Shown here: positions 2,806 to 4,705 of the stretch, piece by piece | Numbering within the stretch: position 1 is the stretch's first letter | Layout: the number at the start of each line of letters is the position of its first letter | Virus record (IMG/VR): IMGVR_UViG_2698536677_000018 | Location: 1-4,705 of that record | From: a virus | Lineage: Duplodnaviria > Heunggongvirae > Uroviricota > Caudoviricetes | DNA length: 4,705 nucleotides | Reading direction: 5' to 3' (one strand) | Position numbers and translations under genes: made by a program | Notes under the pieces: model-generated | Told to the model about the DNA's origin: nothing | The model's input: the letters and a program-made list of their open reading frames with translations, nothing else | Databases searched by the model: none

Positions 2806-3021
2806 ATGTACCAGATGGAAAAAATCACAACGGGTGTGTCATACACCACGTCAGCGGTGGGGACGGGATACTGGTTACTGCAGCTGCTGGACAAAGTCTC
2901 TCCGTCCCAGTGGGTGGCGATAGGTGTGCTGGGGAGTCTGCTGTTTGGCCTGCTGACGTATCTGACTAACCTGTATTTCAAAATCAGAGAGGACCGGCGT
3001 AAGGCGGCGCGGGGAGAGTAA
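2806..3021 (+). CDS. S: Class II holin (S21-type pinholin), 71 aa, with dual-start motif M1-Y-Q-M4
   Basis: Translation [71 protein letters not shown] closely matches phage 21 S as recalled (...[14 protein letters not shown]...[22 protein letters not shown]). GGAGA SD upstream. The six-frame ORF starting at 2701 would run through the terminator hairpin, so the ATG at 2806 is preferred. Confidence 0.85.
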
Positions 3022-3025
3022 AGTG

Positions 3026-3370
3026 ATGAATAAAAAATACGAACTGGTTGTTAAAGGGATAAATAATTACCCGGATAAGATTACTGTTACTGTGGCACTG
3101 GAAATTGGTGGGTATCCGTCACTGTTGTTGCCATATGTGGCGATTAGTCTTGACCGTACTGAAGGTGCCACGCTGGAGTTTTACGAAGCTGAGGCGAAAA
3201 AGCAGGCGAAGCAGTTTTTCATGGATGTTGCTGCCGGGTTATGTGAAGGGGATGGTCCGTTGCCGGAAAAGCGGCCCATCATTTTAGAGGCGCAGGATGT
3301 GTTGATAACCTACAGAGGAAAACTACCGGGAATAATTACTGGTTCTCTGAAGACTCCACCGCTGGCCTGA
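3026..3370 (+). CDS. Conserved hypothetical lysis-cassette protein, 114 aa, soluble; possibly DUF1327/YdfR-like
   Basis: ORF with strong SD (GGGGAGAG 3011-3018) that starts 5 nt after the holin stop. Its position between holin and endolysin matches the slot of ydfR in the E. coli Qin prophage as recalled. No transmembrane segment or recognisable catalytic motif. The family assignment is from memory, not a search. Confidence 0.55.
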   Translation: MNKKYELVVKGINNYPDKITVTVALEIGGYPSLLLPYVAISLDRTEGATLEFYEAEAKKQAKQFFMDVAAGLCEGDGPLPEKRPIILEAQDVLITYRGKLPGIITGSLKTPPLA

Positions 3371-3420: not shown

Positions 3421-3957
3421 ATGAACGCAAAAATCAGATACGGCCTGTCGGCTGCCGTTCTGGCGCTGATTGGTGCAGGGGCGTCTGCGCCTGAAATCCT
3501 CGACCAGTTTCTTGACGAAAAAGAAGGTAACCACACCACGGCATACCGTGATGGTGCGGGGATCTGGACCATCTGCCGCGGTACCACCCGAGTGGATGGT
3601 AAACCTGTCGTCCCGGGCATGAAGTTGTCGAAGGAAAAATGCGACCAGGTTAACGCCATTGAACGTGATAAGGCGCTGGAGTGGGGGGAGCGCAATATTA
3701 AAGTACCGCTGACCGAACCCCAGAAGGCGGGTATCGCGTCATTTTGTCCTTATAACATTGGCCCCGGTAAGTGTTTCCCGTCTACGTTTTACAGACGGAT
3801 TAATGCAGGTGATCTAAAAGGTGCCTGCGAAGCGTTCGCTGGTGGATTAAGGACGGTGGCAGAGACTGCCGTATCCGCTCAAATAATTGCTACGGTCAGG
3901 TATCCCGGCGAGACCAGGAAAGTGCACTGGCGTGCTGGGGAATTGACAGGCAAGTAG
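3421..3957 (+). CDS. R: SAR endolysin (T4-lysozyme-family, phage 21 R-like), C-terminal ~40 codons apparently frameshifted
   Basis: N-terminal Gly/Ala-rich signal-anchor-release segment YGLSAAVLALIGAGASAP. Catalytic triad spacing E-x8-D-x5-T in KEGNHTTAYRDGAGIWT matches phage 21 R (LEGVSYIPYKDIVGVWT). After ...GDLKGACEA the called frame gives FAGGLRTVAE..., unlike the family, while the overlapping frame encodes RWWIKDGGR...SRRDQESALACWG, which resembles phage 21 R (RRWTYAGGK...TRREIEREVCLWG). Confidence 0.75.
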   Translation: MNAKIRYGLSAAVLALIGAGASAPEILDQFLDEKEGNHTTAYRDGAGIWTICRGTTRVDGKPVVPGMKLSKEKCDQVNAIERDKALEWGERNIKVPLTEPQKAGIASFCPYNIGPGKCFPSTFYRRINAGDLKGACEAFAGGLRTVAETAVSAQIIATVRYPGETRKVHWRAGELTGK

Positions 3958-4041
3958 AATATTTTGCTGAAAATGACGTTGGTCAACGCGGGTGGGTAAC
4001 ACGAAATCCTGCGAACTGGCAAAAGCTAAGTGAATAAAAGT

Positions 4042-4080
4042 AAAACCTCGTTTGTTGGCCGCAAACGGGGTTTTGTGTTT
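4042..4080. terminator. Strong bidirectional rho-independent terminator hairpin (13-bp stem, 7-nt loop, T-rich tracts on both sides)
   Basis: AAAACCTCGTTTG (4042-4054) pairs with CAAACGGGGTTTT (4062-4074) with one G-U pair, followed by TTTTGTGTTT. The A-run on the 5' side gives a U-tract on the reverse strand. Confidence 0.65.
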
Positions 4081-4143
4081 CTGACCTTGAGTAAGGCAAA
4101 GGAGAACATAGGAAAGTATAAACGAATTCTGTTGAGATTGACT

Positions 4144-4290
4144 ATGAAAGACGGCCTTGAACTGAAAGCGCCTGTAACTGATGACGTCAGCAGAGCGCTG
4201 GCTTTTGCTATTAAGTGGGTGGCGGTCGGTATTGCTGTGTCTCCGATGCTGTATGGGCTGGCAAAACTGGTCATTGCGTTGAAATCGTGA
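4144..4290 (+). CDS. Hypothetical small membrane protein (48 aa, one predicted TM segment)
   Basis: First ATG in the 4030-4290 open frame lying downstream of the terminator hairpin. C-terminal hydrophobic stretch WVAVGIAVSPMLYGLAKLVIAL. No convincing SD within 5-10 nt of the ATG, so support is weak. Confidence 0.25.
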   Translation: MKDGLELKAPVTDDVSRALAFAIKWVAVGIAVSPMLYGLAKLVIALKS

Positions 4291-4302
4291 AGAGGATTAA
4301 GC

Positions 4303-4413
4303 ATGTCAGACAAGCTCATAACGCTGGCGAAGATCCTCTGTGTAATCGTCGGCATTTCATTTTCACTAATATGCTGGTTGCTATTTGCTTTTCCACTGCC
4401 TGGCGCGTCTTAA
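4303..4413 (+). CDS. Hypothetical small hydrophobic peptide (36 aa, single TM-like segment)
   Basis: ATG at 4303 preceded by GAGGA (4292-4296) at 6-nt spacing. Translation MSDKLITLAKILCVIVGISFSLICWLLFAFPLPGAS. Too short to appear in the supplied ORF track. Confidence 0.35.
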   Translation: MSDKLITLAKILCVIVGISFSLICWLLFAFPLPGAS

Positions 4414-4443
4414 CTTTGTCAGGGCTGGTGGGGTGAGGGGGAT

Positions 4444-4705
4444 ATGAACCGTGTTCTGTGTGTGGTGATTATTGTCCTGCTGGTAGCCTGTGGTGCGCTT
4501 GGTCTGGGGCTGAATCATTACCGCGATAACGCCATTACCTACAAAGCGCAACGCGATAAAAAAGCCAGTGAGCTAAAGCTGGCGAACGTGACAATTACTG
4601 ATATGCAGGTACGCCAGCGTGATGTCGCTGCACTTGATGCCAGATACTCGAGGGAATTAGCCGATGCGAGAGCTGAAAATGAAACTCTGCGTGCTGATGT
4701 TGCCG
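4444..4705 (+). CDS. Rz: Rz inner-membrane spanin (i-spanin), lambda-type, 5' partial (runs off the window end)
   Basis: Translation [87 protein letters not shown] is near-identical to lambda Rz as recalled (...[64 protein letters not shown]). N-terminal TM segment then coiled-coil region. GAGGGG SD upstream. Confidence 0.9.
4665..4705 (+). CDS. Rz1: Rz1 outer-membrane lipoprotein spanin (o-spanin), embedded in the +1 frame of Rz, 5' partial
   Basis: ATG at 4665 in a different frame from Rz encodes [13 protein letters not shown]..., matching the lambda Rz1 start MLKLKMMLCVMMLP as recalled. Only 13 codons lie in the window; the true start could instead be the Met at 4680. Confidence 0.6.

Follow-up and report, generated by a model that had tools for sequence, protein, structure and literature searches.

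The open reading frame at positions 4303-4413 of the DNA described here, referred to as ORF B, is very probably a frameshifted pseudogene allele of a conserved 43-codon gene, lying in a lysis cassette that is itself decaying. The DNA, hereafter the window, is a stretch of 4,705 nucleotides from the late region of a lambdoid prophage. Judged by the pattern of substitutions among its alleles, the intact form of ORF B is a real coding gene under purifying selection, and virtually every Stx phage and roughly one fifth of complete E. coli genomes have it directly upstream of the spanin gene Rz. The feature in the window corresponds to a previously annotated pseudogene allele from a catalogued family labelled 'unknown function'.

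The window copy carries little weight by itself: it adds a further inactivating lesion to a prophage lysis cassette in decay, and the allele is already listed as a pseudogene in RefSeq. It would represent a natural loss-of-function allele if intact ORF B is indeed an accessory lysis protein. The family is more interesting, as a conserved 43-residue membrane protein encoded before Rz in Stx phages and left unannotated in 933W. Stx is released by way of phage lysis, and an overlooked part of the Stx lysis cassette would therefore be worth attention.

Organization of the window

The following features were assigned in the window.

365-2656: NanS-p-type esterase gene
2806-3021, plus strand: class II holin (pinholin) of phage-21 type, with a dual start at 2806 and 2815 (Pfam PF04971, E = 8e-33)
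3026-3370, plus strand: YdfR family (DUF1327) gene between holin and endolysin, from a profile match
3421-3957, plus strand: endolysin R, R21-like, Phage_lysozyme family with an N-terminal SAR region; a pseudogene, from profile and homologue comparison
4041-4075, no strand assigned: terminator-like hairpin between R and ORF A (-18.3 kcal/mol, z = -2.4)
4108-4290, plus strand: ORF A, small membrane protein, PHROG 1115; the phage ATG at 4108 is ATA here, and an in-frame ATG lies at 4144
4292-4296, plus strand: Shine-Dalgarno sequence GAGGA of ORF B, in the shorter spacer variant GTGAAGAGGATTAAGC; most alleles have GTGAAGGGAGGATTAAGC
4303-4413, plus strand: ORF B, window allele, 36 codons; very probably a frameshift-truncated copy of a 43-codon gene, PHROG 4906
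4303-4368, plus strand: authentic codons 1-22 of ORF B (MSDKLITLAKILCVIVGISFSL), identical to intact alleles
4369-4370, plus strand: 2-bp insertion, an AT/TA duplication changing CTAATG to CTAATATG, from alignments; its placement is ambiguous within 4368-4372
4369-4413, plus strand: out-of-frame tail ICWLLFAFPLPGAS and premature TAA; PHROG 4906 matches residues 1-28 of 36
4371-4436, plus strand: displaced authentic 3' part of ORF B, 21 residues and TGA, in another frame and without a Shine-Dalgarno sequence of its own
4444-4705, plus strand: 5' part of Rz (inner-membrane spanin), running off the end of the window

Damage to the cassette extends beyond ORF B. In the endolysin gene R, a 1-nt deletion between 3834 and 3835 scrambles the last ~40 residues, V89 has been replaced by G, and the stop codon TAA has become CAA; the lost stop is common to E. 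coli ML35, in which R reads through to 205 aa. ORF A, which in phages encodes 60 aa from its ATG, has the ATA start in both the window and ML35, and PGAP still annotates the 60-aa product (WP_072164699.1) from that ATA. With R shifted out of frame and deprived of its normal stop, and with no ATG left at the phage start of ORF A, the cassette of the window is regarded as decaying as a whole.

The hairpin at 4041-4075 lies inside the late operon. It is symmetric and looks bidirectional, with A-rich sequence before it and T-rich sequence after it, and its minus-strand version was called by a scan. Homologues conserve the hairpin with a perfect stem, in which a C-to-T change in the window has produced one G-U pair.

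Elsewhere in the window, a 438-bp stretch of the esterase gene is duplicated in tandem and in frame within the region 526-1401; the copies start at 526 and 964 and show 95% identity across the 300 nt that were scored. The product, a SASA esterase of the NanS-p type, has 763 aa and repeats about 146 residues in its N-terminal part. On the minus strand, positions 4026-4355 hold a 109-aa ORF antisense to ORF A and to the start of ORF B, which no annotation uses. It is most likely a shadow ORF, because it shares its third codon positions with ORF A, a register known to contain few stops.

The window allele of ORF B

Translation of 4303-4413 on the plus strand gives exactly MSDKLITLAKILCVIVGISFSLICWLLFAFPLPGAS, and the GAGGA at 4292-4296 is followed 6 nt further on by the ATG; a preliminary description of this DNA had claimed this ORF, with a GAGGA at ideal spacing. 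The same description called the peptide hydrophobic, and its best 19-residue Kyte-Doolittle segment (residues 11-29) scores 2.69, which is strongly hydrophobic. Its placement of the ORF between endolysin and Rz also holds, with the endolysin at 3421-3957 on one side and Rz from 4444 on the other, and the 12-nt gap that it noted after the stop of the 4144-4290 ORF, with both ORFs in one frame, is true for the window. The longer form of the Shine-Dalgarno spacer was found in 61 of 85 loci and the shorter form in 22, two loci being too short upstream for scoring; the shorter form is also seen with intact 43-aa alleles. ORFs of at least 25 aa number 56 in the 4.7-kb window, and the length of ORF B is not beyond chance. 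The frame is taken as real because of its homology to PHROG 4906, not because of its length; the family profile matches the 36-aa peptide with E = 3.4e-12, over residues 1-28 only.

The extra 2 bp after codon 22 were seen in alignments with ML35, with the phages PhiR12_3 and PhiR5_2 and with IMG/VR loci. The window product consists of 22 authentic and 14 out-of-frame residues, the last 21 residues of the intact form being replaced, and its premature stop lies 23 nt ahead of the normal stop. Deletion of the 2 bp in silico restored a 43-aa protein that ends at the TGA at 4434-4436, and PHROG 4906 matches this repaired form end to end with E = 2.5e-27. The displaced authentic tail also forms the end of a program-listed ORF at 4215-4436. 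As regards membership in PHROG 4906, the window copy has both the profile match and a location right before Rz within a pinholin/SAR-endolysin cassette, and it lacks the attributes of a full-length member, namely W33, L36, G40 and G43 and a stop at the Rz start.

The window-type allele bears the PGAP label 'hypothetical protein, frameshifted' in ML35, in a 2013C-3264 plasmid and in B19374. The closest DNA matches to the window are E. coli ML35 (99.5%), B19374 and several plasmids of 60-100 kb. Across 5,426 complete E. coli genomes, an exact 61-nt probe spanning the insertion site hit 15 records for the insertion allele; minus the 2 bp, the same probe hit 409 for the matching intact allele. The three insertion-allele records that were inspected (ML35, the 2013C-3264 plasmid and B19374) have in common a single IS3-bounded remnant with the order holin, YdfR, lysozyme pseudogene, ORF A, ORF B pseudogene, Rz, PerC, NleH pseudogene and EspS, and its sites are virulence-type plasmids and two chromosomes. 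Copies of IS3-family elements bracket the remnant from holin to EspS in the ML35 chromosome, the 2013C-3264 plasmid and the B19374 chromosome, as if it had been mobilised like a composite element.

Several other readings of the ORF B sequence were rejected. Programmed frameshifting or phase variation at the AT repeat was discarded because the repeat comprises just two units and the allele does not extend beyond a single remnant lineage. A lipoprotein was discarded for want of a lipobox around C13, and a cleavable signal peptide on account of an overlong h-region and an unconserved residue at -1.

Codons 20-23 of ORF B read TTT TTA GTC ATG (FLVM) in 933W-type alleles and TTT TCA CTA ATG (FSLM) elsewhere. 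The four nucleotide changes within six bases of the 933W-type alleles coincide with the spot of the 2-bp insertion in the window, and these codons may be a local mutational hot spot.

The intact gene and its family

In 80 IMG/VR loci, and in PhiR12_3 and PhiR5_2, two phages that form plaques, ORF B is 43 codons long. The relatives obtained by searching 5.8 billion proteins fall into 115 clusters, every one from E. coli or Shigella; their modal length is 43 aa, a length that stays steady across diverged C-terminal variants. The invariant residues of the family include M1-L5, F20, S21, W33, L36 and G43, and G40 is nearly invariant. An exhaustive profile search of 1.84 billion representatives gave 28 matches, all in the same narrow family and none a distant relative, and a scan of genome contigs for relatives gave two spurious hydrophobic matches only (Tumebacillus and Oscillospiraceae). 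ORF A and ORF B had no match above noise in Pfam, NCBIfam or PADLOC, and their PHROG families are both annotated 'unknown function'. Two possible origins of ORF B, as a paralogue of ORF A or as a duplicate of the N-terminal TMD of Rz, which looks alike by eye, were rejected as BLASTP gave no alignment in either case. A full-text literature search with the peptide sequences found no paper carrying the ORF B sequence, and neither ORF A nor ORF B is mentioned in a survey of Stx-phage lysis cassettes (PMC8136144) or in what a literature search on ydfR and endolysin brought up.

The PhiR12_3 allele and a window-like intact allele differ by 11 synonymous changes and one non-synonymous change (Sd = 11, Nd = 1), which gives a pN/pS of 0.03 in the ORF B frame, with values above 1 in the other two frames. 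By our own binomial estimate, 11 synonymous changes out of 12 have p ~5e-6 under neutrality. Pairwise ratios fell below 1 in all 15 comparisons among six alleles, that of 933W included. Alleles P0062 and P0081 carry the same 2-bp insertion as the window together with an 11-nt deletion 12 nt downstream, by which the conserved C-terminus is regained in a 40-aa protein. These two cassettes have an undamaged endolysin (177 aa), ORF A and Rz (155 aa); the called holin is only 38 aa long and is followed by a 213-aa ORF.

The frame-restored 40-aa alleles lie at 2099-2221 of locus L086 and at 2410-2532 of locus L087 and have two different C-terminal variants. The presence of the insertion and the 11-nt deletion in two C-terminal backgrounds points to compensation and subsequent recombination.

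From the family alignment, AlphaFold2 predicted a single continuous helix over residues 2-38 with a pLDDT of 89.5. Going by K4 and K10 and the positive-inside rule, the likeliest topology would be a single pass with the N-terminus inside and the C-terminus outside.

Genomic context of ORF B

ORF A lies directly upstream of ORF B in all 84 loci with enough flanking sequence, and a SAR lysozyme is encoded upstream in 78 of 78. Rz follows ORF B directly in 65 of 71 loci and lies further downstream in the other six. At the junction, the ORF B stop either overlaps a GTG start of Rz (GTGA) or precedes an ATG by 7 nt. Among the exceptions, locus L016 has a 311-aa DNA methyltransferase gene (4140-5075) between ORF B and Rz, 7 nt past the ORF B stop, as do L017-L019. 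In locus L082 (2426-2646), ORF B is followed by an N-truncated second ORF A of 40 aa, the GTG of which overlaps the ORF B stop, and a 28-aa hydrophobic ORF, MSAELIRAMAFAIRIVAIAVLVWAIRWW, lies between this second ORF A and Rz; it has an AFAI motif like that of the ORF A TMD.

Phage records that encode full-length ORF B number 276, among them 933W, phi24B, Min27, P27, Stx2 phage 86 and Shigella Stx phages, and most of these records leave it unannotated. In 933W it occupies AF125520.1 27435-27566 (locus L092), in an unannotated 153-nt gap between ant and Rz. Phages of the 933W type have ant in place of ORF A and retain ORF B. Because ant-bearing phages lose ORF A and keep ORF B, the latter travels with Rz and not with ORF A. 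The Qin prophage of K-12 carries R and Rz genes from these same families, rrrQ overlapping rzpQ directly, and a check of Qin for ORF A, ORF B or named homologues (ynfQ, ynfR) found none of them. ORF B is considered accessory and not required for lysis, because the R-Rz module of Qin does without ORF A and ORF B. The insertions of ant (in the 933W type) and of the DNA methyltransferase gene mark the R-Rz interval as a hot spot for cargo insertion.

Proposed role of the intact protein

From its position, its strand and its tight coupling to Rz, a function of intact ORF B as a small lysis modulator is plausible. The protein would be expressed late, sharing the Q-dependent late transcript with S, R and Rz, and its stop is expected to overlap or abut the Rz start. 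It would insert in the inner membrane with its N-terminus inside and its C-terminus outside, and would act there as a non-essential lysis accessory, for example by tuning pinholin triggering, the SAR endolysin's release or the function of the spanins. Late synthesis of the intact protein along with S, R and Rz, its residence in the inner membrane and its modulation of a membrane step of lysis are put forward tentatively; that it is an accessory lysis peptide, made with Rz, which tunes the timing of lysis and the release of Shiga toxin is a more doubtful proposition. It is from position that the lysis-accessory role is read, because the annotations all state 'unknown function' and the full-text search found no publication with the sequence.

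Alternative explanations

Two other readings concern the ORF as it stands in the window. The preliminary description suggested that 4144-4290 and 4303-4413 could be two pieces of one disrupted longer gene, a notion that draws on their common frame and 12-nt distance in the window and that is scarcely credible in the light of other alleles. It is refuted because the 14-nt spacer of most alleles (59 of 84 loci, against 12 nt in 25) sets ORF A and ORF B in different frames; moreover, a TGA stands between them in every locus, they belong to separate PHROG families (1115 and 4906), no fusion of the two occurs in the 115 protein clusters, and 933W-type phages carry ORF B behind ant, without ORF A. 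The comparison with homologues that had been proposed for a continuous 4144-4413 ORF yielded no continuous frame among the 84 loci and no fused homologue. It had also been thought that the 36-aa peptide might be functional as is, either as a type I-like membrane toxin or as a self-standing lysis modulator. A translatable gene for a single-helix membrane peptide does lie in the lysis cassette, with a good Shine-Dalgarno sequence and ATG and a hydrophobic stretch of membrane-spanning length, but what the window holds is a truncated allele of a 43-aa gene, and a function of the 36-aa form in its own right is very unlikely. Conservation is limited to residues 1-22, the tail belongs to a rare lineage (15 records against 409) of degraded remnants in which the gene is annotated as a pseudogene, and the exact 36-aa product has no entry in an index of 153 billion genes. 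The toxin version shares with type I toxins the small size and the single hydrophobic TMD (2.69 over residues 11-29, and the predicted helix 2-38 of the intact form), whereas the scans gave no sign of an antisense RNA antitoxin, an own promoter with an independent unit or a known family, and the proposal is unsupported. Scanning of 3900-4705 gave no promoter-like site on the plus strand, the minus strand had none over or downstream of ORF B, Rfam returned no family at E <= 1 for the same interval, and no described toxin family rose above noise in Pfam or NCBIfam. The truncated peptide is most likely non-functional; it may have a residual membrane effect, which is conceivable because the out-of-frame tail is still hydrophobic and of membrane-spanning length.

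For the intact gene, it could be argued that the region does not code for protein and that the conservation reflects expression signals of Rz, such as its ribosome-binding site or mRNA structure, the ORF being incidental. The 3' end of ORF B does overlap the ribosome-binding site and start of Rz, the family is narrow (the 28 matches among 1.84 billion representatives) and many phage records leave ORF B without annotation, but this explanation is highly improbable: the ratio of 11 synonymous changes to one non-synonymous change is peculiar to the ORF B frame, the 43-aa length is kept over diverged C-termini, a compensating indel brings the frame back, and the Shine-Dalgarno sequence and ATG are retained where the upstream gene differs. 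It is also unlikely, though less so, that intact ORF B has nothing to do with lysis and is cargo, for instance a superinfection-exclusion gene or another membrane moron in the R-Rz hot spot. ORF B could be cargo because the R-Rz interval hosts the unrelated ant and DNA methyltransferase genes, and both the terminator-like hairpin after R and the Qin lysis module without ORF B agree with it; on the other hand, no promoter-like site lies upstream on the plus strand, ORF B is tightly packed against Rz on the late strand, and it has no PADLOC defence match.

Comparison with known systems

The nearest relatives are the intact members of PHROG 4906, which correspond to the 43-aa 'hypothetical protein' of RefSeq from lambdoid and Stx prophages of E. 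coli and Shigella. Their first 22 residues are identical to those of the window copy, and they share its Shine-Dalgarno and ATG context and its place directly upstream of Rz. The window copy differs from them by the 2-bp insertion and by the loss of the conserved C-terminal 21 residues, which include W33, L36, G40 and G43.

Type I toxins (such as Hok, Ldr, Ibs, TisB and ShoB) resemble ORF B in having fewer than 60 aa and a single hydrophobic helix. ORF B differs from them in that the scans showed no antisense RNA, independent promoter, structured leader or family match for it, and in being embedded in a polycistronic late operon. Holins and antiholins, such as S68/S71 of phage 21 and LydA-D of P1 (PMC9025707), are, like ORF B, small hydrophobic proteins of the lysis cassette, and they are late proteins acting at the inner membrane, as ORF B would be. 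Neither Pfam nor PHROGs links ORF B to a holin family, a single helix is predicted for it where class II holins have two TMDs, and its cassette already has a dual-start holin of the S21 type.

The 'releasin' gp25 of phage Mu (DUF2730) is an accessory, non-holin lysis factor of 99 aa, with its N-terminus outside, its C-terminus inside and a cytoplasmic domain of 73 aa (PMC9239132). Like ORF B, it is a small inner-membrane protein with a single TMD, encoded near a SAR endolysin and spanins. ORF B, in contrast, has 43 aa with almost no soluble domain and matches neither DUF2730 nor any other Pfam family; its cassette additionally has a pinholin, and the topology of gp25 is opposite to the one predicted for ORF B. 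Mu gp25 is the nearest functional analogue of ORF B, from a different family.
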